Shown here: in pieces, positions 26,151-45,061 of the stretch
How positions within the stretch are numbered: position 1 is the stretch's first letter
Layout of the letters: every line of letters begins with the position of its first letter
Source of the DNA: an uncultured virus (IMG/VR IMGVR_UViG_3300034066_001606)
Taxonomy: Duplodnaviria > Heunggongvirae > Uroviricota > Caudoviricetes
Length of the DNA: 64,000 bases
Strand: one strand, 5' to 3'
Virus record (IMG/VR): IMGVR_UViG_3300034066_001606
The notes under the pieces: generated by a model
Told to the model about the DNA's origin: nothing
Databases searched by the model: none
Seen by the model: the letters and a program-made list of their open reading frames with translations, nothing else
Made by a program: the position numbers and the translations under genes

Positions 26151-26330
26151 ATGAAAATAGAAAAAGATAAAAGTAGAGAAAATGTTGATTTAAAAAGCCA
26201 CTCTATAGATTTGGTTTTTGAAAACGAAAATAAACCATTGCCTTATAGTAATGAATTGCTTAAAAAATTAAACATACCTAGTAATGATAAAAAATCAACA
26301 AGAAGCAAGGATAGCCGAGCAAATAGTTAA
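26151..26330 (+). CDS. Small hypothetical protein overlapping the Zeta gene start
   Basis: MKIEKDKSRE..., 59 aa from ATG 26151. Confidence 0.4.
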   Translation: MKIEKDKSRENVDLKSHSIDLVFENENKPLPYSNELLKKLNIPSNDKKSTRSKDSRANS

Positions 26331-27180
26331 GGGTTTCTATAAGGATAACGATTTCAATAGAAAGCACAATCTAGTTGGTAAAAGATATGGTAGGGATAAA
26401 CATGCTGAAGTTAGCCATGCTGAACGAATAAAGCTAAATGAGGATACTACAAAGGATAGGCATTTTAATAGAAAAGAATGGCGTTATTCAGCTAGTAGGC
26501 AAAAACTACATGAAGAAATTGTAATGGATAATTTTTACAATTACCCTAGTCAAGAAAAACCAACATGTGTTATCGTTGTTGGTGGCGGTGGAAGCGGTAA
26601 GAGCCACATATACAATACAAAAGTTAAGCCAAATTTACCCGACGCTGATAGCTATGCATACCTAAACAACGACGACATAAAGGAAATGTTACCTGAAAGT
26701 CACGAGTTTAGAAAAATTGATGCAAAAAGTACAGCAAATAGATTACATGAAGAGAGTGCTGATATTACACGATTGTCGCTTGATTTTCTTACCCACAATA
26801 AAAAGAATTTTGTTTTAGATGCTACATTTAGCAACTACTCTTCAGCAGTACCTAAGATAGAAAAAATGATTAAACAAGGGTACAAAATAAAATTAATTGG
26901 TGTAACAGCTAACAGACAAGTGGTTGAACAAAGTGTGAAAGACAGATACGAAAGAAGTGGTAGATATGTACCAATTAGTATTGCACTAGGGGCGCAAGAT
27001 GGTGCAAGACACACATTACATAATTTCATTAAGAACCATAGTGACAAATTTGAAGATATACAAGTGTATAACAACGATGGGTTACTAGAAAAGAAAGACC
27101 CAATACATGTGTACGACAATGGCGAGATTAAGCATATAAAATATCACCAAATAAAAAGGTATTTTAGAGGCTACGATTAA
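26284..27180 (+). CDS. Zeta/PezT toxin-family P-loop kinase with N-terminal leader
   Basis: RQKLHEEI, GGGGSGKS, NNDDIKEMLPE, LHEES, FVLDAT, GYKI, RYERSGRYVP. Confidence 0.85.
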   Translation: MIKNQQEARIAEQIVKGFYKDNDFNRKHNLVGKRYGRDKHAEVSHAERIKLNEDTTKDRHFNRKEWRYSASRQKLHEEIVMDNFYNYPSQEKPTCVIVVGGGGSGKSHIYNTKVKPNLPDADSYAYLNNDDIKEMLPESHEFRKIDAKSTANRLHEESADITRLSLDFLTHNKKNFVLDATFSNYSSAVPKIEKMIKQGYKIKLIGVTANRQVVEQSVKDRYERSGRYVPISIALGAQDGARHTLHNFIKNHSDKFEDIQVYNNDGLLEKKDPIHVYDNGEIKHIKYHQIKRYFRGYD

Positions 27181-27188
27181 GAGTTATT
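27181..27188 (+). promoter_or_regulatory. Putative late promoter box GAGTTATT
   Basis: Intergenic, upstream of portal. Confidence 0.45.
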
Positions 27189-27219
27189 AATTTACATTAA
27201 CTAGTTAATGTAAAAGAAA

Positions 27220-28881
27220 ATGGCTAAACGAATCGCAGAGCAATTGGCTTCCATAGAAAGGGCTGAAAGCTTAATACAAATAAAGAAAAACAAATTGCTT
27301 GAAAAGGGTATTACTAGCAACAATCCCTCAGACATTCTTACAGCTAAAACAATGCTTGAAAACATTGAGGATAAGAATGAAATTAAGCACAAATCCTATA
27401 TAATTGACCCAAATGATTTCAATTCATTTCTAGGGTATAAAAACAAAACATATAGTTTAAGCTACAACATGTCCAGAAGGATAAGTTATTCAGTTCCAAT
27501 TATTAGAGCAATTATAGGAACAAGAATAGACCAAGTTGCTTCCTTTTGTGAACCACAAAGTGATAAGTATTCTACTGGATTTGTGATTAGGAAAAAGAAA
27601 AAATACTTTGAATCAGAGAGCGACAGTACTCCGACAAAAGAAGACCAAGCCAAAATACAAAAGTACACAGAATTTATATTGAATTGTGGCGAAGGTAGTA
27701 ATTTCCAATTTGATGATTTTGATACCTTTGTTCGTAAGTTTATAAACGATTGCCTTACATACGACCAAGGAACATTTGAGGTCGTTAGAAACCGACGTGG
27801 TGCTCCAGCTAATTTCTTTGCAACAGATAGTAGCACAATGAGATTAACCGACAATATTGAGGACAATAGTTCGTTTTACGATAACAATGGCTTACAAGTT
27901 GCTAGGTTTGGTGACAATAAGAAAATAAAAGGGTATAAAACCGAATATTGCCAATTAAAAGATGGGGTAATTGTAGCTGAGTATTATCCGTGGGAATTGT
28001 GTTTTGGCATAAGGAATCCAACTACAAATATTTATGCGAATGGTTATGGTGTAAGTGAAATTGAGGTTTTGATGAATACTATAACAAGTATGTTGTGGGG
28101 CGATGAATACAATAGGCGTTTCTTCAGTCAAGGCTCAGCACCAAAGGGTTTCATAAAAATAAAATCAGGTACGAACATAAACAATGGAAGGGTTTCTGAG
28201 TTTAAACAACAATGGCAATCAATGATGTCTGGTGTTTATAATAGTTGGAAGACTCCAGTTTTAGAAGGTGATATTGATTGGGTTGATTTACAGCACAACA
28301 ATAGGGATATGGAATTTAGCAATTGGCAAGAATACCTTATCAAAATTAGTTGTGGTATTTACAGAATTGACCCTGCTGAAATTAATTTTCCATTGTCTGG
28401 TAGTTCAGACCAAAAGCCAATGTTTGAAGGGAACAATGAAGCTAGGTTAAAACATAGTAAGGATAAGGGTTTATATCCACTACTTAAATTTCTGCAAAGG
28501 AAATTAAATAAGTATGTAATGCAACAAATTGACCCCGAATTTGAATTGGTATTTTGTGGCATGGATGGTGTAAACATTGCCGATGAATTGGATAATGATA
28601 TTAAGATGCTAGGTAATTTCATGACAATAGATGAAATTAGAATTAGGAGAGGTTTGAAACCACTAGGCGAAGATAAGGGTGGTAGTATAGTATGTAATAG
28701 TATCTGGTTACAGAACCACAATATGGAAGAGCAAAATAAAAAGGAAGAAGAGCAACAACAGCAACAACAGCAAGGTGGTGAACAAGAACAGGAGCCAGAA
28801 TACGACGAAAGCGAGTTACCACAAAATGAGGAAGACCCTTTTGAAAAAGCATTAAACACTTACATGAAAACATTATCTTAG
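27220..28881 (+). CDS. Portal protein
   Basis: IIRAIIGTRIDQVASF, DCLTYDQ, GYGVSEIE, FFSQGSAPKG, DMEF..W.EYLIK..CGIY.IDPAEI; SPO1/Twort-type. Confidence 0.93.
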   Translation: MAKRIAEQLASIERAESLIQIKKNKLLEKGITSNNPSDILTAKTMLENIEDKNEIKHKSYIIDPNDFNSFLGYKNKTYSLSYNMSRRISYSVPIIRAIIGTRIDQVASFCEPQSDKYSTGFVIRKKKKYFESESDSTPTKEDQAKIQKYTEFILNCGEGSNFQFDDFDTFVRKFINDCLTYDQGTFEVVRNRRGAPANFFATDSSTMRLTDNIEDNSSFYDNNGLQVARFGDNKKIKGYKTEYCQLKDGVIVAEYYPWELCFGIRNPTTNIYANGYGVSEIEVLMNTITSMLWGDEYNRRFFSQGSAPKGFIKIKSGTNINNGRVSEFKQQWQSMMSGVYNSWKTPVLEGDIDWVDLQHNNRDMEFSNWQEYLIKISCGIYRIDPAEINFPLSGSSDQKPMFEGNNEARLKHSKDKGLYPLLKFLQRKLNKYVMQQIDPEFELVFCGMDGVNIADELDNDIKMLGNFMTIDEIRIRRGLKPLGEDKGGSIVCNSIWLQNHNMEEQNKKEEEQQQQQQQGGEQEQEPEYDESELPQNEEDPFEKALNTYMKTLS

Positions 28882-28882
28882 T

Positions 28883-29674
28883 ATGGAAAAATTTATTGAC
28901 GAACTATTTGGAAATTTTAAGTTGCAATTTCTATTTTTTATATTCATAACAATATTCATTATTGTCTTTGTTTACTATGTGTTTAAATACAGAACACAGA
29001 TAAAAAACATATTCCTATTTTTTGATAAGATTGGGGAAGTTGAGTTAGACCAAAAGAAAATTATTGATAACCAAGAACTTTTAATGCAACAGCATAAGGT
29101 TATTACTGAAAATGTTGATAAGATAGCAAAGGAAGCGATACCAAATGGTTCAAATACTTTAAGGAAAACAAACGATAGCATATTTAAAATTGAAAAGTTG
29201 GTAGAGGAAATATGCCATAGGTTGGATTCAAGATTTGAAATAGACAAGTTTCCACTATTTGAATGTGATTCAGATGGGTTATGTGTGAATGCTAATTCTG
29301 CATTGTGTGATTTGTTTGGTGTTTCTAAGGATAGGATATTTGGTTTGGGTTGGACAACCTTTATTCACCAAAGAGATGTTGATGTGGCAATTAAAAATTG
29401 GAATAGGGCGGTACATAATAAACATACCGAATTGGTAGACTCTTACAGAATAATTAATTACAAAACGAATGAAACTATTCCAGTAACTTACAAAGCTATT
29501 TTCAAACACAATTCAGATGGAACTTTAAAAAGTGTATTGGGTACAATTTGGAAAACTAAGACAGTTAATACCAAAAGAGAAGAGGATATTAAATGTTTAC
29601 TTGAAATGGTTGACAAATTTAAAAAGACAAAAGTGGGTAGAGATTTCTTAGAAGAAATAGAAAATGGAAAATAA
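28883..29674 (+). CDS. Membrane protein: N-terminal TM, coiled coil and PAS domain
   Basis: Hydrophobic residues ~14-34; PLFECDSDGLCVNANSALCDLFG...GLGWTTFIHQRD PAS signature. Confidence 0.8.
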   Translation: MEKFIDELFGNFKLQFLFFIFITIFIIVFVYYVFKYRTQIKNIFLFFDKIGEVELDQKKIIDNQELLMQQHKVITENVDKIAKEAIPNGSNTLRKTNDSIFKIEKLVEEICHRLDSRFEIDKFPLFECDSDGLCVNANSALCDLFGVSKDRIFGLGWTTFIHQRDVDVAIKNWNRAVHNKHTELVDSYRIINYKTNETIPVTYKAIFKHNSDGTLKSVLGTIWKTKTVNTKREEDIKCLLEMVDKFKKTKVGRDFLEEIENGK

Positions 29675-29822
29675 AAAACGCAAAAATATAATTAACAAGG
29701 AAGAGCCTGAATTTTTGGCACAAAAGCAATACGAAAAAGTTTTCAAAAAAGACTATAATAAAATGTTGGTTGCTATGAATCTTAATATACTAAAAGAATT
29801 GAGTAATGATACTAAACAATAA
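29664..29822 (+). CDS. 52-aa hypothetical protein (not in ORF track)
   Basis: MENKKRKNIINKEEPEF...; overlaps both neighbours. Confidence 0.5.
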   Translation: MENKKRKNIINKEEPEFLAQKQYEKVFKKDYNKMLVAMNLNILKELSNDTKQ

Positions 29823-30723
29823 GCAATTAAACAATATATTTAGTATAATAGATAAATTCCATTCTATATTCATTTCTACCCATTTGGGTACAAACTATTT
29901 AAGCGATGAACAGAAGTTCAATTTAAAAAATGCTGGAATAGATTTAAGTACTTTTACTAAGGCTGAAATAGTTGATAATGCATTCAAGTTTGGTATGCTA
30001 AGTAATATGTTGCAATCTGTAAAAAATAGTGCCAAGTTAACCTATAAGAAATTCCTTAAATTTTTAGAATTAAATAATTTACCGCTTACAGCTGATGAGC
30101 AATTTGCATTGGATTCGGTTAAACAGCAATGTTATGGCGACATCACTGGATTAGGCAACAAGGTTAAACAAGACATGAACAACATTGTAATTAAACATAG
30201 TAATGCTCAAAAATTTAAAATGGATGCTAGTATTAATAGGTTGGCAAGTGAAGCAGTAGCTAAAAGGCAAACATTGAATAAGTTGTCTAGCGAACTAGGG
30301 CATTTAACAAAGGATTGGAGTAGGGATTTTGATAGGATAAGCGATTACATAATGCATTCGGCATACCAACATGGTAGGGCGCAAAATTTGCTTAAAAATT
30401 ATGGTGATGATGTTGAGGTTTACTTCACAGTCTATCCTAAGGCATGTAAACATTGTATTAGGTTGTATTTGACTGGCGATATAGGTAGTGAACCAATTGT
30501 GTTTAAGTTAACCGATGTTTTATCAAATGGCAATAACATAGGTGTTAAAAGTATTGACTGGAAACCTAGTGTTAATCCAATTCATCCATGGTGTAGATGT
30601 ACTTTAACTATTAAGCCTAAAGATAGTATTTGGGATGGTGCTTCACAACGATATGTGTTGGTTAGAAATACACATAATGTCAAAAGGAAAAGCAAGGTTG
30701 CAGTTAAGGTGAGTTATGAATAA
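29806..30723 (+). CDS. Minor head protein, MuF / SPP1 gp7-like
   Basis: DWSRDFDRI, ACKHC...PIHPWCRC; located between portal and protease. Confidence 0.8.
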   Translation: MILNNKQLNNIFSIIDKFHSIFISTHLGTNYLSDEQKFNLKNAGIDLSTFTKAEIVDNAFKFGMLSNMLQSVKNSAKLTYKKFLKFLELNNLPLTADEQFALDSVKQQCYGDITGLGNKVKQDMNNIVIKHSNAQKFKMDASINRLASEAVAKRQTLNKLSSELGHLTKDWSRDFDRISDYIMHSAYQHGRAQNLLKNYGDDVEVYFTVYPKACKHCIRLYLTGDIGSEPIVFKLTDVLSNGNNIGVKSIDWKPSVNPIHPWCRCTLTIKPKDSIWDGASQRYVLVRNTHNVKRKSKVAVKVSYE

Positions 30724-30745
30724 CAATGTAAAAAAGTAAAAGAAA

Positions 30746-33592
30746 ATGGTAAAAAAGAGTAAAATAGTTGAACAACAAAGGGAAAATAAAGGGTATTACG
30801 AATACGAAAACATGTTGTGCAATGCTAACATTAGACTTTCCAAATTTAAGTTCTTTGAAAACGATTTAAAGTCGTCGTTAAAGGAATTAAACCACTTGTT
30901 TAGCTTAATGGTTGATGGAAAGCCAATAATTAACAATGAGACCCTAATAAGCCTAAAAGTTGGTACTGAAATTGCACACCAAATGAAGTTGATCGATTTG
31001 CGTAATTTTATTATAAGTAAGATAAAAGAAAAGGGTGAATCTAATTACTTAAAAATAACCAATCTTAAAATAGTTAGTAATGCAAATCCTTTTGATTGTA
31101 CACTAACAAAATCGCTAGGTATTACAGCACTTACAGCCGATTTCTTAATTGAAAATGAGTTGCTAGGTGTTGACACATACAATGCATTGGAAAAGGGTTT
31201 TATTGAGGAAGCTACCGACTATTGGAATGTTGATATTGAAAAAGCGGTAAAGAATTTAGCAAAGTACAAAGCTGTAAGAAAATTGGTTTATCGTAATGGT
31301 AAAACCTTTGTTGTTACCTACTATGTGAATCCAATAACCCAATTGCCAGAAGAGCAAGATAGCATAGAATTGAATGACGATAAGAACATACATGCCATTG
31401 CAATAAGCGGTTTGGCAGTAGGTGATGAAATTGAGGATAAAAATGGTGCAAAAGCTGTAGTTAGACGTTTTGAAAAAGATGGTAGTATAAGATTAGATTA
31501 TGGTTCTGGAATAAAAACAACAATGTCTTTTTCAAACTTTGCTAAAAAGGTTAAGAATGGTGATTTAATTATTTCAGCACATAAGAATGTTCAAATAAAG
31601 AATACCAATGCCACACCGACAAGTTTGGCTGACTTAACCCACATATCTTCATTGGGTGGTAGTACTGGAGCTGAACTTACAGAAGATGAAAATGGTGTAA
31701 AATGGGTTGTTAAGCGTGGTGGTGGAAAACAAGCTAGTGAACAATGTGCTAACGAAGCACTAGCAAACCAAATATACGAAACATTGGGTTTAAATGCTCC
31801 TAAAAGTACCATTATTACAGATAAGGGTGATAAGGTATTGGTAAGTGGTTTTGTGGAAAATTTGCAGGATATAAACAGCATAAGCGGAACAGCACAATTC
31901 ACAAACACTAAGGTATTGCTACAATCAACATTTGTTGCACATGCATTACTAGGCAATTTGGATATAGTTGAAAACGACAATACTAAGGTTGATGTAAATG
32001 GTAACATATTCTTTTTAGATAATGGTGGCTCACTATTGTACAGAGCACAAGGTGGTCCAAAGAATTTTGATAAAAGCTGTAGTGAACTAAGTTCAATGCT
32101 ATCATTTACTAGCAATCAAACTAAGTGGTTTGGTAATTTAACTAAGGGCGATATAGCAATGCAAATTGAAAATTTGATATTGCCAAAAAAGGATGAAGTT
32201 TTGAAAACAATAAGTAATGCAAGTTATTTAGACAAGGCTCAACAAAAAGAACTTCTAGACACTATGACTGGAAGGTTTGATAGCCTTGAAAAGTTTTTAG
32301 ATAATTACAAATTGAATACCAAGAATAAAAATAGTCCAATTAAATATGACGATGCAAAAGATACATTGGATTCAATTACACTTGCAAATAGTAAAAAGAA
32401 TGATTACAAAGTTATAGACGACTATGAAAAAATATTGGATGATGTAAACGATTACATTAAAAATAAAAATGGTGGAAAAAGCAAAAACGATACAATTGGT
32501 TTTGTCAATGCTAATTTCATGTGTAAGGCTAGGGGTTTTGATGGTAAACCAACTATATTGTCAGATGTTGATTTTAATAAGTTGTTTATTAAGTCTAAGT
32601 CTCAAAAGGGAGCCAATTTGCTATACAGGACAGTAGGTGCTGGACATGAGGATAGTTTGGTTGATAGAACAGAATTCTATACTGGAGGAGTTGGGCAATC
32701 AGCTTATGGTGCTGGATTGTACTTTGCAAATGAAACTAATAGTTTAAATAATTTCACCACACCTCCACCTCCACCTAGAACAAATGATTTAAGCGATAGT
32801 AAGGGGTATGGCGATTTAACGCATGTGGTAATGACAGCACCAAATTTCAAATGGGGTGATTTAGACAGCATTAGAAGTGAGATGCGTAACTTCCTAAACA
32901 ACACTATAGTTAATCCAAAATTTGATAAGGCAAAGGATGCGTTTGACAAAGCAACACAAGCTTTGAAGGACCACACTAAAAATTTCCATATAAACTTTGC
33001 AAAAACTAGAAACCATGCCCAAGAGGTTGCAGTTAAGGCAATGGAAATTCATGCCAAAAGGGATTGGGGTGAACACCATGTAACTGAATTAGCCGACATA
33101 CTTAACAAATTTGGAAATGGGGCAAGTGGTAAGCAAATCGGTCAAACAATTAGGCTACAACTACCAAAAAATGCTGATGGTAGCAAGGGTGAGCATTACG
33201 ATTATGTTTTAACTGGAGCAGGGAACACCAATGGTAAAAGCTACAATACCAATGTAAAGACGTTGTTTAATAAAATTTACGACGAATACAGCGTTCCATT
33301 CCAAGCCGAACTAACAAAAGCCGACATGCATTCAGACAAGCAGTTTATACAGCTTAGTTCAGATGCAATGGAAGCGCAAGATGAATTAAACAAACATCCA
33401 CATACTATTCCAAATCCAAACTTAACAAAAAGCGATAAGGCTTTGATGGAATTAATAAAGAAAGATCAAAGCGGAGATAGTGCTGGAATATATGCCATAC
33501 ATAAAGGTTATGATGGTGTAACAACTAGTGCTGGAAACTACCGAGTGATTTACAATAGAACAAAATTGATTATTAACGAAAAATTATTTTAA
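30746..33592 (+). CDS. 948-aa multidomain head-associated protein: PI3/4-kinase/HipA-like kinase and ADP-ribosyltransferase-like domain
   Basis: LGGSTGA, WVVK, NEALA..IY, LGNLD...DN, LDNGGSLLYRAQG; RGFDGKP, LYR, AYGAGLYFA, GYDGV...VIYNRT. Confidence 0.7.
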   Translation: MVKKSKIVEQQRENKGYYEYENMLCNANIRLSKFKFFENDLKSSLKELNHLFSLMVDGKPIINNETLISLKVGTEIAHQMKLIDLRNFIISKIKEKGESNYLKITNLKIVSNANPFDCTLTKSLGITALTADFLIENELLGVDTYNALEKGFIEEATDYWNVDIEKAVKNLAKYKAVRKLVYRNGKTFVVTYYVNPITQLPEEQDSIELNDDKNIHAIAISGLAVGDEIEDKNGAKAVVRRFEKDGSIRLDYGSGIKTTMSFSNFAKKVKNGDLIISAHKNVQIKNTNATPTSLADLTHISSLGGSTGAELTEDENGVKWVVKRGGGKQASEQCANEALANQIYETLGLNAPKSTIITDKGDKVLVSGFVENLQDINSISGTAQFTNTKVLLQSTFVAHALLGNLDIVENDNTKVDVNGNIFFLDNGGSLLYRAQGGPKNFDKSCSELSSMLSFTSNQTKWFGNLTKGDIAMQIENLILPKKDEVLKTISNASYLDKAQQKELLDTMTGRFDSLEKFLDNYKLNTKNKNSPIKYDDAKDTLDSITLANSKKNDYKVIDDYEKILDDVNDYIKNKNGGKSKNDTIGFVNANFMCKARGFDGKPTILSDVDFNKLFIKSKSQKGANLLYRTVGAGHEDSLVDRTEFYTGGVGQSAYGAGLYFANETNSLNNFTTPPPPPRTNDLSDSKGYGDLTHVVMTAPNFKWGDLDSIRSEMRNFLNNTIVNPKFDKAKDAFDKATQALKDHTKNFHINFAKTRNHAQEVAVKAMEIHAKRDWGEHHVTELADILNKFGNGASGKQIGQTIRLQLPKNADGSKGEHYDYVLTGAGNTNGKSYNTNVKTLFNKIYDEYSVPFQAELTKADMHSDKQFIQLSSDAMEAQDELNKHPHTIPNPNLTKSDKALMELIKKDQSGDSAGIYAIHKGYDGVTTSAGNYRVIYNRTKLIINEKLF

Positions 33593-34016: not shown

Positions 34017-34045
34017 AGTTCTAATTTTTGATTTATAATATTCAC

Positions 34046-35581
34046 ATGGCTGACAAAAAATTTAGATTCTGGTTTCCAATTGACGAAATGAAAAAAGGAA
34101 CCGACGAATCTGGTGAAGTGGAAATGAAGTTCGGCGGTTATGCAAGTACAATGCGAAAAGACGTTGATGGTGAAAACCTTGACCCTAGTGGGTTTGATTT
34201 AAGTTATTTCAACGAGCGTGGTATTGTTAATTGGAATCATGGTAAGACACCTGAAACAATAATAGGTGAACCCATTGAAGCTAAAATAATTGGTAAAAAA
34301 TTATGGGTTTCAACTAAACTTTATAACAGAAGTGAGTTGGCAAAAGGTGTTTATGCATTAGGTGAAACACTTGAACAAAGCGGTGCAACTAGAAGACTAG
34401 GATATAGCATTGAGGGTATTGTTACAGAGAGAGACCCAAATAATCCAACTAAGGTTAAAAAAGCTATGATTACCAATATGGCTATTACCTTAAACCCTAA
34501 AAATCCTGACAGCATTATAGATATAATTAAAGGCACATTTAACGAGTTTGATGATAGCGTTGACACTAGTGCCGACGAACTACTAAAACAAGTCTCTAAT
34601 GGTGGAGCAAATGGTGGTACACAATACATTATTGACATTACAAGACCAGATGGGTGTAGAGTAGTTGTAGATAAGGACTATCAAATAAAAATTACCAAAG
34701 CACTTGATACCATAAATGGTAAGCCATTAATTAAGGAAGACTTGGATAACAAATTGGTTGATTTAAACAAAGTTTCAAGCAAAAAAGATTATTTGAGTAA
34801 GGCACAAATAATGGAAAAAATATTTTCAAAATTTGGAGTTATAGATTTACTGAACGCAAACAAAATTTTCAATAAAATAAATAGTACAATGAAAAAAAAT
34901 CAAAAAAATTCAGAATTGGCAAACATTACTGAAGAAGTGTTGGAAAAAGCACTAGGTAAAATGTCTGACTCATTGAGTGACGATATTTTAAACAAAAATA
35001 TGAAAAATGATGAAGCTGAAGAAGAAGTTGATCCGAATGATGCAATTGAAACTGATGAAAACGAGGAAGAAGAATATGAGGAAAAACCAAAGCCAAAAGC
35101 TAAGGCGAAGCCAAAAGCAAAACCTGAAATGAATGACAACATGGAAAAGGGAAGCTTGAGTGAATCATTGGCAATTGTACTTAAAGGTTTGAACGACAAA
35201 ATTAACAAGTTTAATGAGAAGTTTGATGCATTGGAAAAAAGCTTAGATAGCCAAGCTGAATTGCTTAACGAAATTGCTGATTCCGCTCCTGCTCCTAAAA
35301 GTATTACCAAAAGCAATTCCAAGCCATTGGGTCGTTCTTTTGAAAAAGGTATTGAGGATGAATTTGAAAAAGGTGTTAATGGTGAAGAAAGTGAAAAAAC
35401 GCTATCTGTTTCAAAACAGAAAGGTGCGGTGCTTTCAGTACTTGACAATTTAGCATTTGGGGCAAAGGGTTTCAATCCAACGATTGCAAAGGCTATGACA
35501 ACATTTGAAAGTTCTGGTACATTGGAAAAAGCAATCGTTGACGAAATCAAAACTTCAACTGGAATTCAACTAGTTAATTAA
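34046..35581 (+). CDS. Prohead protease with C-terminal scaffold
   Basis: GYAST..KDVDGE, NWNH, IIGEP, GYSIEG, AIT.NP.N; acidic coiled-coil C-terminal half. Confidence 0.88.
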   Translation: MADKKFRFWFPIDEMKKGTDESGEVEMKFGGYASTMRKDVDGENLDPSGFDLSYFNERGIVNWNHGKTPETIIGEPIEAKIIGKKLWVSTKLYNRSELAKGVYALGETLEQSGATRRLGYSIEGIVTERDPNNPTKVKKAMITNMAITLNPKNPDSIIDIIKGTFNEFDDSVDTSADELLKQVSNGGANGGTQYIIDITRPDGCRVVVDKDYQIKITKALDTINGKPLIKEDLDNKLVDLNKVSSKKDYLSKAQIMEKIFSKFGVIDLLNANKIFNKINSTMKKNQKNSELANITEEVLEKALGKMSDSLSDDILNKNMKNDEAEEEVDPNDAIETDENEEEEYEEKPKPKAKAKPKAKPEMNDNMEKGSLSESLAIVLKGLNDKINKFNEKFDALEKSLDSQAELLNEIADSAPAPKSITKSNSKPLGRSFEKGIEDEFEKGVNGEESEKTLSVSKQKGAVLSVLDNLAFGAKGFNPTIAKAMTTFESSGTLEKAIVDEIKTSTGIQLVN

Positions 35582-35620: not shown

Positions 35621-37096
35621 ATGGTAGATTTACAAAACTACAATTCTGGTGCTGACAATCAAGTTATGTTTGGAGGAAATGCCACAATGCAAGAGGTTGA
35701 TAACCTTAACAAAGCGTTGGAAGCACAAAACCTCACAGGTCGCGAGACTACTAACTTGACCACAACATCAGGTGCTCCGCTTAAAGTGGAAAGTCTCGAC
35801 AAGACTTTGAAAGTATTGACATACACAGAAAAAGAGTTAACGCTCTGGTCTAGAATCAAAAAGACTCCTGCCTATAATACGGTTGAAGAGTATAACCAAT
35901 TAGTATCTTATGGTGCTGATAGAGGTGGTTTTAACCGAGAGGGTGAACTTCCAGTTGAAGAGGACAGCACTTATGTTCGTAGAGCTCAGTTGGTTAAATT
36001 CTTAGGTGTTACCAAATCGGTTACACATCCTATGACTTTAGTAAATACCATGATTGGTGATGCTATTGACAGAGAAGCTAAGAATGGTACTTTGTGGTTG
36101 TTGCGTAAACTTAATCGTGGTCTTTACTTCGGTAACGAAGCAATGATTCCTGAAGAGTTTAACGGATTCATTGCACAGCATCAATCCAACGATGCATTTG
36201 CCTCATTTAATGAGTACATGAATAGCGAAGTCGTGATTGATTTGCGTGGTAAAGTATTGTCTGAAGAAGCCATTGAAAGCGGTGCTAATGGTATTATTGA
36301 AAACTTCGGTTTAGCTACAGCCTTGTATGCTCCTCCAGTAGTGTTATCAAACTTTGTAAAGAAGTTTTATGGTAACAAGTTCATTCAGCCGAATACCAAT
36401 GCCTTGACCGATGGTGTAATGGGACAAAGAGTAAAATCTTTTGAATCCCAATTTGGTAACATTGATTTGAACTACGATATTTTCTTCAACAAGAATCCGA
36501 CCAAAACTTCAGCCTCTAGTGCAACTTCAGCGAATGCTCCAATTGCTCCAGTTGTGTCTGCGGTTACTCCAGTTGCAACTGATGCATTGGGTAAGTGGTT
36601 CGCTTCTGATGCAGGAACTTATATCTATGCAGTATCAGCCATTAATCGTTACGGCGAAAGTGTGCTGACAGTCTTTGCTACTCCTGCAACAATTGTCGCT
36701 GGAGGTGCTGTTGACATTACGTTCACAGCTTCAGCTTCAACGTATAATGCAACTAGCTTCCAAATTTATAGAAGCCAAGCGGGTGCGACAGTCGGCAATG
36801 CGGTTTATAGCCCATTGTTCACGGTTTCATTAACCCAATTGACAGCAGGATATGATGGCGGTAGTGCAGGTCATGTTCGTGACCGCAATCGTTTCATGCC
36901 AGGAACCAACCAAGCGTTACTCATGGAAGAAAGCGAAGAGGTAATGGAATTCAAGCAATTGGCTCCACTTATGAAAATGGATTTGGCAGTTGTTGGTCCA
37001 GCCTTCCGATTCATGGTGTTGCTTTATGGTACTCCGTTCCTTTATGCTCCTAGGAAAATGGTTCGCTTTATAAACATTGGAACTGACCTCACATAG
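35621..37096 (+). CDS. Major capsid protein
   Basis: GAPLKVESLD, PAYNTVEEY, EGELP..EDS.Y.R, EFDG-like EFNG, LAPLMKMDLA, LYG...LYAP.K; SPO1/Twort-type. Confidence 0.93.
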   Translation: MVDLQNYNSGADNQVMFGGNATMQEVDNLNKALEAQNLTGRETTNLTTTSGAPLKVESLDKTLKVLTYTEKELTLWSRIKKTPAYNTVEEYNQLVSYGADRGGFNREGELPVEEDSTYVRRAQLVKFLGVTKSVTHPMTLVNTMIGDAIDREAKNGTLWLLRKLNRGLYFGNEAMIPEEFNGFIAQHQSNDAFASFNEYMNSEVVIDLRGKVLSEEAIESGANGIIENFGLATALYAPPVVLSNFVKKFYGNKFIQPNTNALTDGVMGQRVKSFESQFGNIDLNYDIFFNKNPTKTSASSATSANAPIAPVVSAVTPVATDALGKWFASDAGTYIYAVSAINRYGESVLTVFATPATIVAGGAVDITFTASASTYNATSFQIYRSQAGATVGNAVYSPLFTVSLTQLTAGYDGGSAGHVRDRNRFMPGTNQALLMEESEEVMEFKQLAPLMKMDLAVVGPAFRFMVLLYGTPFLYAPRKMVRFINIGTDLT

Positions 37097-38364: not shown

Positions 38365-38820
38365 ATGTACGAAATAAACCCTAAAGATAAAATAATTTCA
38401 AGGCAAATATTCAACTCTTTTAAAAAAGAAAAGAAGGAAGAGTTTGTGAACAACATTATTATTAGCGTTGATAAAATATTGTTATTGAAGCGTTGCATTA
38501 GAAGTTCACATCCAAGTTGTTGGTGTACAGCTGGAGGTCATAGGGAAGAGGGTGAAACCTTATTACAAACATGTGCTAGGGAAACATACGAAGAAACTGG
38601 ATTAAAGCCAAAAGTTGATTATGTTTTATTAGGCAATCCATATAGGTTGGAATTACCAGATTGTATTCTGTATTACTTTGTTAGCAATTTGATTAACGAC
38701 AAAGCCACAATAGTATTAGATGAAGACGAGCATGACAATTATGTAATGGCTGACAAGTTGCAATTCAATGGTATGAATTTAATATTGGATTTAAAAAACC
38801 ACTTAAACCAAATTATATAA
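38365..38820 (+). CDS. Nudix hydrolase
   Basis: Nudix box GGHREEGETLLQTCARETYEETGL; LDEDEH. Confidence 0.9.
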   Translation: MYEINPKDKIISRQIFNSFKKEKKEEFVNNIIISVDKILLLKRCIRSSHPSCWCTAGGHREEGETLLQTCARETYEETGLKPKVDYVLLGNPYRLELPDCILYYFVSNLINDKATIVLDEDEHDNYVMADKLQFNGMNLILDLKNHLNQII

Positions 38821-38822
38821 TT

Positions 38823-39647: not shown

Positions 39648-40478
39648 ATGGGTGCTATAAAAATAAATATTAGTTTACAGGATACCATTGATGAATTTCA
39701 ATTAACACAACAGCAAACTGAATCTTTAGCTGATTCATGTGCAAGTGCCTTGACGTTGGAGATATACAGACAATGGGTGGAAGAAGCAAAGGGAGCATTG
39801 AACAAAACTAGAGACCAATACATTTCTAGCTTACTTATGGCTGATATTGGCATTGGTGCTAAGAGTATTGTGTTGGTTGGTAAATTTGCCAATATGCTTG
39901 AAAATGGTGTATCACCATTTGACATGAAGGAAGGTTTTAAAAATTCTTCTAAGGTTAAATTTAATAAAAAGGGGGGTTGGTACTTAACCATACCATTTAG
40001 ATGGGCTACTCCGTCTGCAAATGGCTTCAGTAGTGCCTTTACTGGAGTTATGCCGATGGAAATTTACGACATAGTAAAAAACTTTAAGGCAAGTGATGCA
40101 AAACAAACCACTCCTGGAAATAGTAAAGTGAATTCACCAAATAGGTTGCAAAAAATTGATGTGCCAACACCTTACGATTTACCTAAAACTAGGGCAAAAA
40201 TAGAGTTTGAAGAATTGGGTGCTAAAAAGGTATTTGATGAATATGTACATAAGAGCAGCTATTTTGAAGGTATGACAAGGGATGAAAAGAAATATGAAAT
40301 AGCAACACAAGGATCTTACAGCACCTTTAGGAGAGTGGGGCAAAATAGTGAAGATTTAGCATGGATACACAAGGGGTTAACGACTTTAAACCTTGCGCAA
40401 AAAGCTGTCCAAGCAACTGACTCAGATTTAGTAGTTAACAATGAAGTTGATAGGGTTTTATCTACATTTGGATTTTAA
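39648..40478 (+). CDS. Neck/tail-completion protein
   Basis: PFDMK.GF, GGWYLTIPFR, YSTFRRV..NS...AWIH. Confidence 0.6.
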   Translation: MGAIKINISLQDTIDEFQLTQQQTESLADSCASALTLEIYRQWVEEAKGALNKTRDQYISSLLMADIGIGAKSIVLVGKFANMLENGVSPFDMKEGFKNSSKVKFNKKGGWYLTIPFRWATPSANGFSSAFTGVMPMEIYDIVKNFKASDAKQTTPGNSKVNSPNRLQKIDVPTPYDLPKTRAKIEFEELGAKKVFDEYVHKSSYFEGMTRDEKKYEIATQGSYSTFRRVGQNSEDLAWIHKGLTTLNLAQKAVQATDSDLVVNNEVDRVLSTFGF

Positions 40479-40479
40479 T

Positions 40480-40487
40480 GAGTTATT
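40480..40487 (+). promoter_or_regulatory. Putative late promoter box GAGTTATT
   Basis: Upstream of the FN3 gene and the modular-protein cluster. Confidence 0.45.
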
Positions 40488-40514
40488 TATTTTTAAACAA
40501 TAAAACAAAATAAA

Positions 40515-41072
40515 ATGGTAGACTTTATTATCGCTAATCCAGCAGGAACAGTACTAGTTCGTTTAAGAACTGATGCAATAAAACTTTCCAACAAGGATAA
40601 ATTTACAATTATGAGTATTGACTTCATAAGCACAGATTTGGAAAAATCAATGTTTGAAGTTGCCTACAAAATTGGTCATTCTTACACATTGGCTAATTTA
40701 AAAGCCTTTGTGTTATCTAAAAGTTTGAACATGGTTGCACAATCAGGTAATTCTGAATTGAACGCTATTACAAACCAAGTGTTGACCACTCCAGTTATTT
40801 CTGCAGTTAATACACCAACTACAACTTCATTGAAGGTAACATGGGGTGCAATTACTGGAGCAAGTGGCTACACATTGCAAAGAGCAACGAATGCAGGGTT
40901 CACAACAGGAGTTGTTACTTTTGAATTAGATAATCTTTCTGCGAATAAGGTAGTTACTGGATTAACAACAGGAACAGCCTATTACTTTAGAGTAAAGGCA
41001 AAAGGTTCCTTGAATCTTTTTGGTTGTGCCGATAGTGCTAATAGTGCAAACGGAACTGGAACCACTTCTTAA
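40515..41072 (+). CDS. Virion protein with C-terminal fibronectin type III domain
   Basis: TTTSLKVTW...ASGYTLQ...VTGLTTGTAYYFRVKA. Confidence 0.8.
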   Translation: MVDFIIANPAGTVLVRLRTDAIKLSNKDKFTIMSIDFISTDLEKSMFEVAYKIGHSYTLANLKAFVLSKSLNMVAQSGNSELNAITNQVLTTPVISAVNTPTTTSLKVTWGAITGASGYTLQRATNAGFTTGVVTFELDNLSANKVVTGLTTGTAYYFRVKAKGSLNLFGCADSANSANGTGTTS

Positions 41073-41099
41073 TTCATAAATTAACAAAAACATATTACT

Positions 41100-41495
41100 A
41101 TGAAAAACATAGGTGACGAAGCTAGAAGAAAGCAAATTATGTCGTGTTTTGGCACTACAGACGACAACTTCCAAAAAAGCATTACAAGTAATGATATGCT
41201 TGAGAAGGGTGGTAAACATGGTCAAATTGGGGAAATTCGTAATGGCTACAAAAAGATAGCCGAAGGGAAGTGGCAAAAAGTTTCTAAAACACATGGTTGG
41301 ACAAAAAAAGAACACCAAAATGAAGTTAAAAATAAATTATATTATGGTGACAAAAGTGGTGCTTTTGCTCATGAGAAGTCGGCAAGTGAGCTTGACAGCA
41401 AAGTTTACGATGATGAGCATGTTAATAGCATTGGTGGAATTCGCAATGACCACCATGATGGAGATGTAGAATGGAGTTCACATAAACATTTTTAA
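41100..41495 (+). CDS. Putative internal head protein (module A, His-rich)
   Basis: RKQIMSCF leader; 39-aa block identical to one in ORF 42740. Confidence 0.7.
   Translation: MKNIGDEARRKQIMSCFGTTDDNFQKSITSNDMLEKGGKHGQIGEIRNGYKKIAEGKWQKVSKTHGWTKKEHQNEVKNKLYYGDKSGAFAHEKSASELDSKVYDDEHVNSIGGIRNDHHDGDVEWSSHKHF
41169..41285 (+). repeat. Module A copy 1 (copy 2 at 42824-42940)
   Basis: FQKSITSNDMLEKGGKHGQIGEIRNGYKKIAEGKWQKVS; 39/39 aa identical, 18 synonymous codon differences. Confidence 0.95.
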
Positions 41496-41505
41496 AACTA
41501 TTTGA

Positions 41506-42720
41506 ATGAGAAATATATTGGATGCAGTTAGAGCAAAACAAATTCTAGCAAACTTTAAGCAAGATGTACCATTTGTATCGTTTGAAAAGGGTATAGATTG
41601 TGATGATTTGCTTGAAAAAGCTATTAACAGAGGCAATCTTACCTTAAAGCAAATAACCGATAAAAACGGAAAGCAAACGAAGCGTTGGGTAGACCCTAAC
41701 GATAAGGAACACATGGAGCATGGAACACATGCTAGTTTTGAACACAATGGTGAAAAGAAAACTGGAAAAGTTGGTAGGGTGAGCAGTAGTGGTAGATATG
41801 TAGTACATGGCGATGATGGCACTATTTACAAGAAACACCCAATGGAATTGCAGAAGCATGATGGTGACAAGGCAAAAGATGTAAGCAATGATTCTAAAAA
41901 CAAAGGCTTACCGAAAGGTGCGATTGGTAAAACTAATTCTGGAAAGTATATATACAATGATGCTGAACACCCTGAACATAAAGATTTCAGCAAAGAAGAC
42001 CACGAGGATGCAGTAAAATTGCACAGCGATAAAATTTCTGAAAAGCAAAAAATTGTTGACGAGACTGGTGGGTATGGCTCTGGTATGTTAGCAAATCATG
42101 AAAAGCGACACCATACTGAACAAAAACTTAAACACAGCAAAGAAGCAACAAAAAATACTTCAGCAACTAAACCTACAGCTAGTAAGCCTACCAAACCTAT
42201 TGATGCAAAAAAGGTAAAACAATTAGCTGACAATAAGGCGAATTTAGATAAGGCATTAAGTAAAGAGAAAGAACTTTTAAGTGGGTTTAAAAGAAATGGG
42301 TACACTAAAGACCATAAAATGTTTGCAGAAATTAAGAAAGGTTTTGCTAGATTTAAGGAACTTTCACAAGCTACTCTTAAAAAATATGGCAAGGATGTTG
42401 GTATTCATTTTGATGTAGAAGTAGACAATAAAAAACTTCAATATGAAATGAGTATAATGTTTGATAAGTACGATTTACAAGAAAAACATAAAGATAAATT
42501 TTCAAAGAACAATGCTGGATTGGCTTCGTCTTCAATTAATAATAATAGTGCGGATGTTTCCGCAGAAATGCTGAATTCAATTATGTCTAGAGATGGCGGT
42601 TACAAGTTTAGTTCAAGTGGTTATTCGTATTCGGGCTCGTGGGTTGGATTTCCAGTCGTAAGTGGTTCATTTAGTCAATGGGATGCTAAAGTTTACCAAT
42701 TTCATTCAAAATTAAAATAA
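41506..42720 (+). CDS. Putative internal head protein (modules B and C)
   Basis: AKQILANF leader, FEKG and LEKA sites, segments shared with ORF 42740. Confidence 0.7.
   Translation: MRNILDAVRAKQILANFKQDVPFVSFEKGIDCDDLLEKAINRGNLTLKQITDKNGKQTKRWVDPNDKEHMEHGTHASFEHNGEKKTGKVGRVSSSGRYVVHGDDGTIYKKHPMELQKHDGDKAKDVSNDSKNKGLPKGAIGKTNSGKYIYNDAEHPEHKDFSKEDHEDAVKLHSDKISEKQKIVDETGGYGSGMLANHEKRHHTEQKLKHSKEATKNTSATKPTASKPTKPIDAKKVKQLADNKANLDKALSKEKELLSGFKRNGYTKDHKMFAEIKKGFARFKELSQATLKKYGKDVGIHFDVEVDNKKLQYEMSIMFDKYDLQEKHKDKFSKNNAGLASSSINNNSADVSAEMLNSIMSRDGGYKFSSSGYSYSGSWVGFPVVSGSFSQWDAKVYQFHSKLK
41611..41838 (+). repeat. Module B copy 1 (copy 2 at 43493-43720)
   Basis: LEK(A/G)...LTLKQ(I/V)TDKNGKQTKRWVD...GKVGRVSSSG(R/K)YV(V/I)HGDDGTIYKKH, 76 aa. 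Confidence 0.95.
41923..42024 (+). repeat. Module C copy 1 (copy 2 at 43001-43102)
   Basis: IGKT(N/K)SGK..YN...H..H..F(S/T)K.DH.DA..LH. Confidence 0.85.
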
Positions 42721-42739
42721 CAAAAACATTTAAAACACA

Positions 42740-45061
42740 ATGAGAAATAATAATATAACAAACTTCAGTTACGGAGAAAGTAAGAGAAAACAAATACTAG
42801 CTAGTTTTGGTATTGCAGATGAATTTCAAAAAAGCATTACTAGTAATGACATGCTTGAAAAAGGTGGTAAGCATGGTCAAATTGGTGAGATTAGAAATGG
42901 TTACAAAAAAATTGCCGAGGGTAAATGGCAAAAGGTGTCGAATGAAGGATTAACTACTTATGATAAAAAATACAAATCTGATGGTGTTGATTCAAGAGTA
43001 ATTGGTAAAACAAAATCAGGTAAGGATGTTTACAATCATTTTGACCATGAATCGCATGAAAATTTTACTAAGCAGGATCATTTAGATGCAAGTGATTTAC
43101 ATCAGGCTAGGTATGATAAATACATGGAAAGATCGCATGATAATCCGCATAGTGGAATTGTTGATAAGATGGATAACAACATGGATGCCCACGAAAAAGC
43201 AAGTAGGGAAATTAAAGAAGAACGTGTAAAAATTCCAAATTCATTACATGAAACATTTGATTTTGCAATTGAGGAATTAATTGAAGACGAAATACTACCA
43301 AAAGATTTTGATTTTAAAAATTTAAAAGTTAGTAGGGAAAATTTAAACAAATTCAAATTAAAAATAAAAAAAATAAAATTAGAATTACCAATGAGTGAAA
43401 GAAGTTATTGGGAGGAAACTGATGAAGGGTTTGATTTAATACATGATTTTATAGAAAAAAATTTTAAAAATGGTAACAATGGTGAAGACAAACTTGAAAA
43501 AGGTTTAGATACAAGCCATTTAACACTAAAGCAAGTTACCGACAAGAATGGCAAACAGACTAAGCGTTGGGTTGATGCCAATGGTAAAGAACATGCTGAA
43601 CATGGTAGCCATGCAGATTTTGAACATGGTGGTGAAAAAAAGTCTGGAAAGGTTGGTAGGGTTAGTAGTAGTGGAAAGTACGTTATTCATGGTGATGACG
43701 GTACAATATACAAAAAACATCACCATGAAATTAAGCCTAGAGCCAATGGGAACCAAGTTACTGGACAGCCTACAGCAAAAGTAAAACAAGATGGTAAAAA
43801 ATTAAATACACCTCACCACAAATTAGCTAGAACTAAAAGTAGTGATGTTTTAAAGCGATACATTAGTGGAAAGGATACCACACATGAATACCATACTAGT
43901 GCAGAGGATGTGCTTAAAGAAAGAGGTGAACTCCCAGCAGACCACAAATCTACTTTTAAGGGTAAAGTTCCAGATGCTAAAGCTGATGCTAGTGCTAACA
44001 AAATACAAGCAAAACTTGATGATGATAACAAACATCCGCTAACTGATGATGATAATGAATCAGATGCTGACATTGTAAAAAGAATTACATTAAAATTTAA
44101 AGATTTTGCTGGAGCTGTGAATGCTGTTTGCGATGGTATGAAAAAAAGTGCTATCATGTATGGTAGTGGTGGTGTTGGTAAAACCTTCACAGTCAAAAAA
44201 ACACTTAAGAGGAAATTTGGTAAAGACAGAATGTTTGACCCAAAGATTCACACTCCAGGAAGTGATGACTATGATTATGTGTTTATAGATGGTGGTAAGG
44301 TTACAGCAACTTCATTTTACCAATTGATGTGGGAACATAATGACAAGGTAATGGTGTTTGATGATTGTGATTCAGCCTTAGAAGACCCAGATATTAAAGG
44401 GTATATGAAAGGAGCATTGGGTAGCAGTCAAAGTCAAGTTAGTAATATGTCCCAAAGGGAAGTTAAAGCTAGTGATGGAAGTAAAATACCAAAGCAATTT
44501 GACTTCGGTGGTAAAATGATATTTATTACCAACATACCTAAGGATACTATTACTAAAAGTAAGGAAATGCAACCAATTATGAGTAGAAGTTTTGCGCAAG
44601 ACCTTAGTATGGATAGAAAGGACACAATGACATACATTAAACATATTGCCAAAAAAGACAATGGAGAATTAACCAATATGGAATTTGATGGTATTAAAAA
44701 TTATTCACACGACGAAATGGACCATGTGATTAAAATGCTCGATAAACATAAGGATAAGGCATTTGACATCAATGCTCGTAGTGTTGAAACATTATTAGCT
44801 TTTAGTAAAATGTCAACAGCGGAAGTTGAATCTCAAGAATTGGATAGGGAAGAAGCTGGAAAACCTCCATTAACTAAAAAAGAAAAGGAAGAAATATTTA
44901 ACGAAGAGTTTAACAGAAAATCCATTGATTATTTGTACCAACATAAGACAGTGAATGGTAAATTGGATAAAAACTATATTGCAAAAGGTTTTGTTGAAAT
45001 GTTTGGTTGCTCCCCAGACGAAGCATGTGCTTATATTAGAATGGGTTTAAAAATGTTTTAA
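42740..45061 (+). CDS. Putative internal head polyprotein: modules A, C, B and a C-terminal AAA+ ATPase
   Basis: RKQILASF leader; GSGGVGKT, VFDDCD, FGGKMIFITN, MSRS; paralog of ORF 21181. Confidence 0.8.
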   Translation: MRNNNITNFSYGESKRKQILASFGIADEFQKSITSNDMLEKGGKHGQIGEIRNGYKKIAEGKWQKVSNEGLTTYDKKYKSDGVDSRVIGKTKSGKDVYNHFDHESHENFTKQDHLDASDLHQARYDKYMERSHDNPHSGIVDKMDNNMDAHEKASREIKEERVKIPNSLHETFDFAIEELIEDEILPKDFDFKNLKVSRENLNKFKLKIKKIKLELPMSERSYWEETDEGFDLIHDFIEKNFKNGNNGEDKLEKGLDTSHLTLKQVTDKNGKQTKRWVDANGKEHAEHGSHADFEHGGEKKSGKVGRVSSSGKYVIHGDDGTIYKKHHHEIKPRANGNQVTGQPTAKVKQDGKKLNTPHHKLARTKSSDVLKRYISGKDTTHEYHTSAEDVLKERGELPADHKSTFKGKVPDAKADASANKIQAKLDDDNKHPLTDDDNESDADIVKRITLKFKDFAGAVNAVCDGMKKSAIMYGSGGVGKTFTVKKTLKRKFGKDRMFDPKIHTPGSDDYDYVFIDGGKVTATSFYQLMWEHNDKVMVFDDCDSALEDPDIKGYMKGALGSSQSQVSNMSQREVKASDGSKIPKQFDFGGKMIFITNIPKDTITKSKEMQPIMSRSFAQDLSMDRKDTMTYIKHIAKKDNGELTNMEFDGIKNYSHDEMDHVIKMLDKHKDKAFDINARSVETLLAFSKMSTAEVESQELDREEAGKPPLTKKEKEEIFNEEFNRKSIDYLYQHKTVNGKLDKNYIAKGFVEMFGCSPDEACAYIRMGLKMF

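Follow-up and report, generated by a model that had tools for sequence, protein, structure and literature searches.

Several accessory proteins encoded among the head and neck genes of the uncultured virus record IMGVR_UViG_3300034066_001606 (IMG/VR) carry a common cassette, a putative protease site of the lysine type followed by a basic beta-hairpin. The stretch of 64,000 nucleotides (nt) that was analysed is referred to as the window. Cassette proteins are probably taken up into the capsid, clipped and co-injected, a reading that was given a probability of roughly 0.55. We infer cleavage, packaging and injection, as well as the part that acts as the address, from sequence. The most likely cut site of the prohead protease is the bond behind the Lys of hydrophobic-x-Lys|Gly/Ala/Ser. 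This cut would remove the major capsid protein (MCP) propeptide of about 31 residues, dismantle the scaffold and trim the portal. Accessory proteins bear the same candidate signal within a portable cassette consisting of an optional amphipathic leader helix, the Lys site and the basic hairpin. The carriers in the window are the proteins starting at 41100, 41506 and 42740 and a protein of 948 amino acids (aa). They would enter the procapsid with the scaffold core and then be cut at the site and at the internal cassettes of the multi-part proteins. Each freed piece would begin with the basic hairpin, remain in the head with the DNA and exit together with the DNA during infection. In other phages, large polyvalent proteins have their domains connected by this cassette, so the present phage would carry such an arsenal as separate or smaller genes.

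All long open reading frames (ORFs) of the window were located on the + strand. The head/neck module spanned 24-46 kb and comprised the portal (27220), the protease-scaffold (34028), the MCP (35621) and the neck proteins; the gene for the tail sheath came next, at 46035. Based on Pfam, PHROG and PDB matches, portal, protease and MCP were homologous to the set of the SPO1/Herelleviridae type. Identity of the capsid protein was 47% with Bacteroides phages DAC16-23/SJC03 and 37-40% with SPO1-like phages of Bacillus. The source phage is a myovirus of the SPO1/Herelleviridae type of Bacteroidota, with the Bacteroides DAC phages (47%) and Chryseobacterium MA9V-3 as closest cultured relatives. Capsid genes of about 60% identity were present on many IMG/VR contigs of 90-120 kb. 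A megablast search with 41000-45100 gave no match among cultured phages. The features on which the cassette reading is based were the following.

27220-28881, + strand: portal (Pfam Phage_portal 8e-24; phrog_12 3e-50). The N-terminal 30 residues (nt 27220-27309) hold a leader-like helix, then L-L-E-K-G; P-F-E-K-A lies at residue 541.
30746-33592, + strand: multi-part head-module protein of 948 aa, with an internal site-plus-hairpin at residues 145-195 (nt 31178-31330).
34028-35581, + strand: prohead protease (residues 5-165) and acidic scaffold region in one protein (phrog_1028 head maturation protease, 1.2e-41).
35621-37096, + strand: MCP (phrog_752 1.6e-87; SPO1 Gp6.1, PDB 9vel, E 2e-84), with a propeptide at residues 1-31 (nt 35621-35716) and the predicted cut L-N-K|A.
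41100-41495, + strand: protein of 131 aa with a full cassette at residues 1-64 (nt 41100-41291), made of leader helix, F-Q-K-S, L-E-K|G and type A basic hairpin.
41506-42720, + strand: paralog of 404 aa; residues 1-64 (nt 41506-41697) hold leader, F-E-K-G, L-E-K-A and a type C hairpin, NGK...RWVDP.
42740-45061, + strand: multi-module protein of 773 aa with a type A cassette at residues 1-69 (nt 42740-42946), a second site K-L-E-K-G with type C hairpin at residues 249-285 (nt 43484-43594) and a P-loop ATPase at residues 449-690 (nt 44084-44809; phrog_1250 1.8e-32).

Lys-type sites were counted in the window proteome, defined as 84 non-nested + strand ORFs with 20,630 residues. The motif [LFMIV]EK[GAS] occurred 21 times, a count that was not attained in any of 1000 shuffles (expectation 6.5 +/- 2.5). 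The protease-scaffold protein held six, the portal and the 948-aa protein two each and 41100, 41506 and 42740 five together. Head/neck proteins accounted for 16 occurrences with 2.4 expected (0 of 2000 shuffles reached 16). Outside this group the motif was at expectation, with three early occurrences (2.9 expected) and two in tail proteins (1.4 expected). The first-pass annotation, made from the sequence, had named an equal frequency in early proteins as grounds against its proposal; the Lys-site excess was confined to the head/neck proteins. The five sites it had quoted, IVKG, FQKS, LEKG, FEKG and LEKA, were all found, and a Nudix protein of the same region had none near its N-terminus. For [LFM]EK[GAS], the protease-scaffold protein showed 6 occurrences with 0.31 expected, and the portal showed 2 of hEK[GAS] (h, hydrophobic) with 0.15 expected. 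The broad motif h-x-K-[GAS] was enriched in the scaffold (15, 3.7 expected) and in the 948-aa protein (14, 5.9 expected). It was not enriched in the portal (2, 2.3 expected) or the MCP (2, 1.85 expected). The description of such sites as studding scaffold, portal and MCP N-terminus thus holds for the scaffold, and for the 948-aa protein as well, but by the counts of the broad motif not for portal and MCP.

A similar distribution was observed in G006, a complete relative of 100.5 kb. Nine of its 11 [LFMIV]EK[GAS] sites were located at 10-25 kb around the head genes, where 1.7 were expected. The non-head genes at 35-100 kb (loci L094 and L098-L101) had none, with about 7.5 expected, and avoidance of the protease motif outside its head proteins is possible. 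In the window itself, the motif was not depleted outside head proteins.

A Lys site was also conserved in the MCP propeptide. The pattern h-x-K-[AGS]-[LM] was present in all 60 distinct N-termini of relatives and reads L-N-K-A-L in the window. Herelleviridae capsid proteins had the same feature at residues 21-24, namely I-V-S-K-S in A9, K-L-S-K-S in Stau2 and A-L-N-K-A in an SPO1-like phage. The scaffolds of Brochothrix A9, Staphylococcus Stau2 and the SPO1-like phage comprised 6-11 h-x-K-[GAS] motifs and their proteases had one near the N-terminus. LSKA and LEKS were also detected at the N-terminus of the SPO1-like portal. In Listeria phage A511, the mat_peptide annotation of RefSeq NC_009811 lets the mature Cps start at codon 24 (K23|S24), after ...A-L-K and before S-F-T-T-G, in agreement with the Lys-Ser maturation bond named in the first-pass annotation. 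A predicted Lys cutting rule for the head protease of SPO1 type is well supported by this conservation together with one annotated case, A511. The cassette sites have their motif in common with the Lys sites of the scaffold and of the MCP propeptides, and a specificity of the protease for it is predicted. In a PDB sequence search, the protease-scaffold protein had no match.

Relatives' proteins with an N-terminal site shared a recurrent unit, in which a short or long leader is followed by h-x-K-[AG] and a Lys-rich basic beta-hairpin of about 30 residues. Local hidden Markov model (HMM) searches of the relatives distinguished two hairpins. Type A, approximately I-G-x-h-R-x-x-x-G-K-K-Y-K-K-x-x-x-G-K-W-x-P-V, was found in 28 modules of 22 proteins. 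Type B, V-G-D-x-H-P-N-G-K-W-V-W-T-E-Y-K-P-G-K-F-D-W-R, was found in 39 proteins. Alignment A1 joins both types, with the site Lys, two Gly and one Trp invariant (K36, G44, G56 and W58). Two to three copies of the cassette were present inside several single large proteins, each preceded by a site. An AF2 model of the A1 cassette (mean pLDDT 68.7) comprised helices at 6-16 and 20-28, the site in an exposed loop and the hairpin at 45-60 with pLDDT 83-87. With a model of this mean pLDDT, Foldseek gave 0 matches in the PDB, and no Pfam family covered the cassette in Pfam scans.

The window carriers all sit between the portal and the tail sheath. A short N-terminal peptide, either leader or cassette, is common to otherwise unrelated proteins, here the 131-aa protein, the 404-aa protein, the ATPase and a Zeta-type kinase. 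The type A modules of 41100 and 42740 were matched by the site-plus-hairpin HMM, with 39.1 bits (independent E-value, iE, 2e-12) for 41100, the first row of A1, and 36.9 bits for 42740. Type C, a site with an NGK-turn hairpin, was found in 41506 and the 948-aa protein and as the second module of 42740. It did not match the type A/B model, and architecture and the NGK turn are all that tie it to the main cassette. The homolog of 41506 at locus L066 reads YFEKG, then ...NGKMMHRWVDP. In the 948-aa protein, residues 145-195 read L-E-K-G, I-E-K-A and then an NGK-turn hairpin ending YVNP. Its stretch KLVYRNGKTFVVTYYVNP had been likened to KQITDKNGKQTKRWVDP in 41506 and 42740. The expression NGK.{4,6}[YW]V[ND]P, which was also defined post hoc, matched 30746 and 41506 and arose in none of 3000 shuffles. 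The likeness is borne out for 41506 and not for 42740, which reads ...RWVDA and misses the expression.

Both 42740 and 30746 are multi-module proteins with one recognisable enzyme domain each, the phrog_1250 ATPase and a kinase-like lead, respectively. Cassette-bearing homologs of the 42740 ATPase are a conserved head-module gene in relatives. Residues 291-948 of the 948-aa protein were conserved as well, with homologs of 773-834 aa (25% identity, E ~1e-38) between the ATPase and protease genes. The assignment of this protein as kinase/ART was upheld in part. The kinase-like leads comprised HipA_C at E 0.008, which is below the cutoff, and Atlas rows of 0.81-0.84. No ART was detected by Pfam at E<=1 or by PDB sequence search. 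A second copy of the ATPase was encoded upstream.

21181-22158, + strand: leaderless ATPase paralog of 325 aa, 30% identical to 42740 over 244 aa (E 2e-22).

The leader HMM and the site-plus-hairpin HMM gave no leader, site or hairpin hit in this paralog. The window hence has two phrog_1250 P-loop ATPase copies, one bare (21181-22158) and one behind cassettes (42740-45061). The bare domain is common in T4-like phages (1277 records, E<=1e-3) and often mis-annotated as thioredoxin. A repeat element, G-K-x-I-G-x-T-K-S-G-K-x-h-Y followed by the His-rich H-x-x-F-x-x-x-D-H, was also observed in 41506-42720, 42740-45061, P0053, P0232 and L066 18387, and it recurs in database cassette proteins.

The A1 profile matched 671 proteins in a word-indexed search. 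An exhaustive search gave 1376 clusters at 50% identity, 72 of them at E<=1e-10. The fetched proteins contained 356 modules, 222 in the first 80 residues and 134 internal. The motif h-x-K-[GAS] opened 344 of the 356 modules, a count biased by the site columns that the HMM includes. Smaller members had near-identical N-termini and mutually different, mostly unannotated C-termini. Of 34 large cassette proteins scanned with Pfam, 18 had hits. The domains comprised ART-PolyVal, Kinase-PolyVal, ddrB-ParB, InPase, PBECR3, LPD1, Zeta_toxin, NUDIX (two proteins), RelA_SpoT, SAM lyase, topoisomerase IB, RadC, DUF5661, DUF3990, DUF3293, Kyano_Gp96, AAA_33 and SNF2/ResIII/Helicase_C/Eco57I. The cassette was located at the domain joints of these polyvalent proteins. 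The fusion to varied enzymes elsewhere that had been expected of the leader was found for the cassette, with Zeta kinase, Nudix, kinase, ART and P-loop ATPase carrying it in databases. A shared N-terminal element followed by Lys-type sites, as originally proposed, is thus present, appears specific to head-module proteins and recurs in relatives and in the 1376 clusters. As far as the accessible parts of Iyer et al. 2017 (PMC5512222) go, polyvalent proteins are predicted to be packaged in the capsid and injected, and large cassette members with these Pfam domains belong to that class.

Several observations weigh against loading and cleavage. The site Lys is tightly coupled to the hairpin and could be a structural part of a small domain instead of a cut site. 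Whole-record searches of five relatives gave 17 matches. One full cassette gene adjoined the terminase gene, outside the head module. Three hairpins, of G002, G003 and G006, were parts of winged-helix-like proteins encoded in early-looking regions and had neither a leader nor a clean site. By its sequence distribution, the hairpin is a domain with a life of its own. Two hEK[GAS] motifs were present in the window's own terminase. Hallmark polyvalent Pfam families were found neither in 27 window proteins (24289-54743, E<=0.01) nor in nine stretches at E<=1. The paper on MA9V-3, the nearest cultured carrier, reports no virion proteomics in its accessible part. To these come the bias in the module count given above and the weakness of the leader statistics described below.

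The coupling of Lys and hairpin is central to an alternative in which the unit is an ordinary small binding domain for DNA or a common partner. The Lys would be structural and uncut, the proteins need not be in the virion and their position among head genes would reflect late expression or gene-cassette shuffling only. Besides the constant adjacency of Lys and hairpin, the leaderless hairpins in early-looking regions and the cassette gene next to the terminase fit this explanation. The wide occurrence of the ATPase domain in T4-like phages fits it too, with none of the 1277 records covering 80% of the query. Against it, a clean hydrophobic-x-K-[GAS] is missing from most of the early-region hairpins. 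The same Lys motif was found in 60/60 MCP propeptides, was 6-fold enriched in hairpin-free head proteins including the scaffold and was absent from 65 kb of non-head genes in G006. The module is also placed exactly at polyvalent domain joints. A plain binding domain is considered rather unlikely, and capsid loading with clipping at the Lys site is preferred.

The first-pass annotation had based its proposal on a leader motif, Q-I-x-x-x-F, in five proteins that it took to be unrelated enzymes. Two of them are introduced here.

26284-27180, + strand: Zeta-toxin-family P-loop kinase of 298 aa (Pfam Zeta_toxin, PF06414, E 4.9e-32), with a leader (residues 2-21, nt 26287-26346) at whose end a possible site, I-V-K|G, is located; it has no hairpin.
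38365-38820, + strand: Nudix hydrolase of 151 aa (Pfam NUDIX, PF00293, 8.5e-14 at residues 33-126; 52.1 bits, cutoff 21.1), with an N-terminal extension of about 22 residues (nt 38365-38433) that holds QIFNSF and has neither Lys site nor hairpin.

All five motifs were present, starting at residue 13 (26284), 14 (38365), 12 (41100), 12 (41506) and 18 (42740). The whole proteome contained nine QIxxxF with 2.4 expected, and five started in the first 25 residues with 0.23 expected. Based on 5000 residue shuffles, the probabilities of N-terminal counts were P(>=5)=0, P(>=3)=0.0016 and P(>=2)=0.024 for a motif that was defined post hoc, after inspection of the data. The five carriers are only partly unrelated. 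Protein 41100 was 52% identical to 42740 over 106 aa (E 2e-28) and 41506 was 50% identical to 42740 over 151 aa (E 5e-42), with whole N-terminal modules common to the three. Since these are paralogs, three independent occurrences are left.

Nor is QIxxxF constant. What does not vary is h-x-K-[GAS] with the basic hairpin, as given by K36, G44, G56 and W58 of A1. Many cassette proteins, among them the conserved head-module ATPase, have merely 6-10 residues before the site; the helix is therefore an optional leader. QIxxxF appears to be a local variant of this helix and is probably not the address tag as which it had been put forward. The proposed portable tag with a protease-release code for swappable enzymes is supported at sequence level, by the element, the Lys sites and the enzyme fusions, but not with QIxxxF as the tag.

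Longer leaders were frequent among the best 120 database hits. In 90 of them, residues 22-50 held the first module, in most cases behind an initial helix ending ...N-I-x-K-[SA]-F. By regular expression, the leader-end pattern was present in the first 30 residues of 82 of 118 cassette proteins from outside the window. A loose leader-end expression did not discriminate among 1181 locus ORFs, with 50 ORFs at residues 1-30 vs 49 at residues 31-60. A model built from the five window sequences found nothing significant elsewhere, its best non-self hit being at 5.4 bits. A small leader HMM, made from hairpin-bearing proteins of related loci, ranked Nudix second, Zeta third and 41100 fifth, with scores at the level of the null (top-score P 0.47), so that these ranks are suggestive only. 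A large leader HMM was trained on 63 leaders from outside the window and compared with a null of 300 shuffles that counts the top score anywhere in the proteome. Its top hit in the whole proteome was Zeta residues 2-21 with 7.0 bits (iE 0.034), a score that also arose in 5.7% of the null shuffles. The Nudix protein was not in the top 15, and neither it nor the three paralogs, which lack the leader-end Lys, scored. The large HMM thus backs the Zeta kinase only, with P ~0.06 before position is considered.

The Zeta domain itself scored 111.4 bits at a gathering cutoff of 22.3 and has a Walker A sequence, GGGGSGKS. QIVKGF was kept in an 81% identical homolog (P0122). A distant homolog (P0124; 26%, E 4e-9) showed N-terminal DLEKA with a type A hairpin. 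The domain was also found in the hairpin polyproteins L088 (759 aa) and P0192 and in a 'minor head protein' PHROG. Judged by these homologs and the leader, the Zeta kinase probably belongs to the cassette set via a leader-only version. The Nudix extension was kept in a 65% homolog (P0250) and absent in a 43% homolog (P0251) and in L002. Nudix genes were present in the head modules of four relatives and Nudix domains in the cassette polyproteins P0163 and P0232 and in the portal-fusion phrog_15528. Its membership in the set is possible only; the claim made for it was not supported as stated, as the protein had no site or hairpin and no score with the independent leader HMM.

The same data bear on a second alternative, that QIxxxF in five proteins reflects paralogy and coincidence and that Zeta and Nudix are cytoplasmic late enzymes with ordinary N-terminal helices, not packaged. 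The paralogy of three of five carriers, the post hoc motif, the missing score of the Nudix protein, the null-level scores of the small HMM and the 50 vs 49 of 1181 ORFs all point this way. Three independent hits still give P 0.0016, however, and the Zeta N-terminus is the top proteome hit, exactly at residue 2, of a model built without window sequences. Both domains are also repeatedly fused to the cassette elsewhere, and the Nudix extension is an add-on missing from more distant Nudix homologs. Coincidence is therefore regarded as a doubtful explanation, though one that keeps some weight beside the cassette reading.

A third possibility is that the long helical leader, and not the hairpin, is the true capsid address and copies part of the scaffold sequence. 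Near residue 255, the scaffold of the window reads L-S-K-A and then Q-I-M-E-K-I-F, and relatives have I-E-K-A and then K/E-Q-I-F/Y. Apart from self hits, the leader model of five sequences gave some of its best scores to these stretches, and the leader-end pattern in 82/118 proteins would also agree with an address function. The spacing differs by one residue, however, and many cassette proteins, the conserved head-module ATPase among them, have no more than 6-10 residues before the site. The copy itself was rejected as a candidate, as profile-profile comparison with hhalign of leader against scaffold alignments gave no alignment. An address made of the leader alone is considered improbable.

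In T4, a capsid-targeting sequence on the internal proteins IPI-III and Alt is removed by the prohead protease gp21, a family that cuts after Glu in Leu/Ile-x-Glu. The cassette resembles this system as a short N-terminal element common to unrelated proteins and ending at a candidate site of the head protease. Prohead loading, trimming and co-injection with DNA are alike in predicted outcome only. Unlike in T4, the protease is of the SPO1 type (phrog_1028) and the candidate P1 residue is Lys instead of Glu. The conserved part lies mostly after the cut, as the basic hairpin, and not before it, and the unit is also used internally as a joint of multi-enzyme proteins. Given the phrog_1028 protease and Lys at P1, the cassette would work like the T4 system without being a member of it. 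A further parallel is the maturation of Herelleviridae capsid proteins. Both A511 Cps and the MCP of the window have a Lys with Ser or Ala behind it, at a distance of about 23-31 residues from the N-terminus. The A511 case is known for the capsid protein only, and the extension to cargo and polyprotein joints is the new part.

The Lys-ending head cassette is best filed within the theme of polyvalent and internal head proteins. The repertoire of Zeta, Nudix, kinase, ART, ParB, InPase, PBECR and LPD1 and the head-gene context agree with the accessible parts of PMC5512222. The same parts attribute polyvalent processing to metallopeptidase domains of the proteins themselves (P1 DdrB example), give two to fifteen effector domains per protein and do not describe a joint of Lys site and hairpin. 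In contrast, the window enzymes are separate genes or small polyproteins. The first-pass annotation had named no earlier description for a Bacteroidota myovirus; the idea as such has a precedent in the capsid-packaged polyvalent proteins published there. In the giant phages SPN3US and phiKZ, numerous proteins inside the head are substrates of a single prohead protease with a simple cut motif and lose their propeptides, according to the accessible parts of PMC5694885, PMC7411985 and PMC10052503. These phages differ in having a T4-type protease, another motif, another lineage and evidence from mass spectrometry. No description of the cassette or of SPO1-type protease specificity was found in the literature searched, with most subscription papers, the original A511 work included, outside its scope.

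If the cassette reading is correct, a cassette search would reveal packaged and injected proteins of a large, mostly uncultured phage group and the Lys-specific rule of SPO1-type head proteases would apply to cargo as well as to the capsid protein. The dismantling of giant polyvalent proteins would find an explanation, too. The enzymes of the first seconds of infection would include a Zeta-type kinase, a Nudix hydrolase, an atypical kinase and a P-loop ATPase, likely with counter-defence functions. Chryseobacterium phage MA9V-3, as a cultured carrier, makes the reading testable by ordinary virion proteomics. A wider version is put forward tentatively, as the less probable step. The Lys site with its hairpin may be a general 'cut here, keep inside' joint in the very large group of phages with SPO1-type proteases. 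The protease, in place of peptidases belonging to the cargo, would split polyvalent proteins in the capsid, and the hairpin would tether the pieces to DNA or shell for ejection. Such a joint would provide a rule by which the proteins injected by thousands of uncultured phages could be predicted from sequence, and a portable tag with which foreign proteins could be brought into capsids of this kind.

Further observations were made in the relatives' records. In G006, a long-leader cassette gene (10557-11547, L097) was interrupted within the hairpin by one TAA, resulting in ORFs of 73 aa and 273 aa, and is either broken or read through. In the 124-kb record G003, the portal-like gene, the 29806 homolog, the cassette ATPase and the 834-aa gene (L092, 55-70 kb) were located about 40 kb from the capsid gene (L052, 12-33 kb), representing either an unusual split module or a chimeric assembly. 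The large terminase of the window (16553-18241) was located 10 kb upstream of the head module. Its homolog in G003 (L093 13520-16594) comprised 1024 aa, with the halves of the window protein about 450 extra residues apart, possibly an intein or homing insertion.

Other genes of the window included a 351-aa protein at 24289-25344 with HMUDK_hel, the helical domain of 5-hmdU DNA kinase (E 1.8e-46), and a partial match to a small-terminase PHROG. By this domain, thymidines in the DNA of the phage may be hypermodified. A 263-aa protein (28883-29674) with a hydrophobic N-terminal segment and PAS_3 (E 8e-6) was encoded between the portal and the further head-module genes; related loci gave no homolog of it. 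In the tail region, a 1071-aa protein (51528-54743) comprised lysozyme and M15 D-Ala-D-Ala carboxypeptidase domains and is likely a tail-associated lysin.

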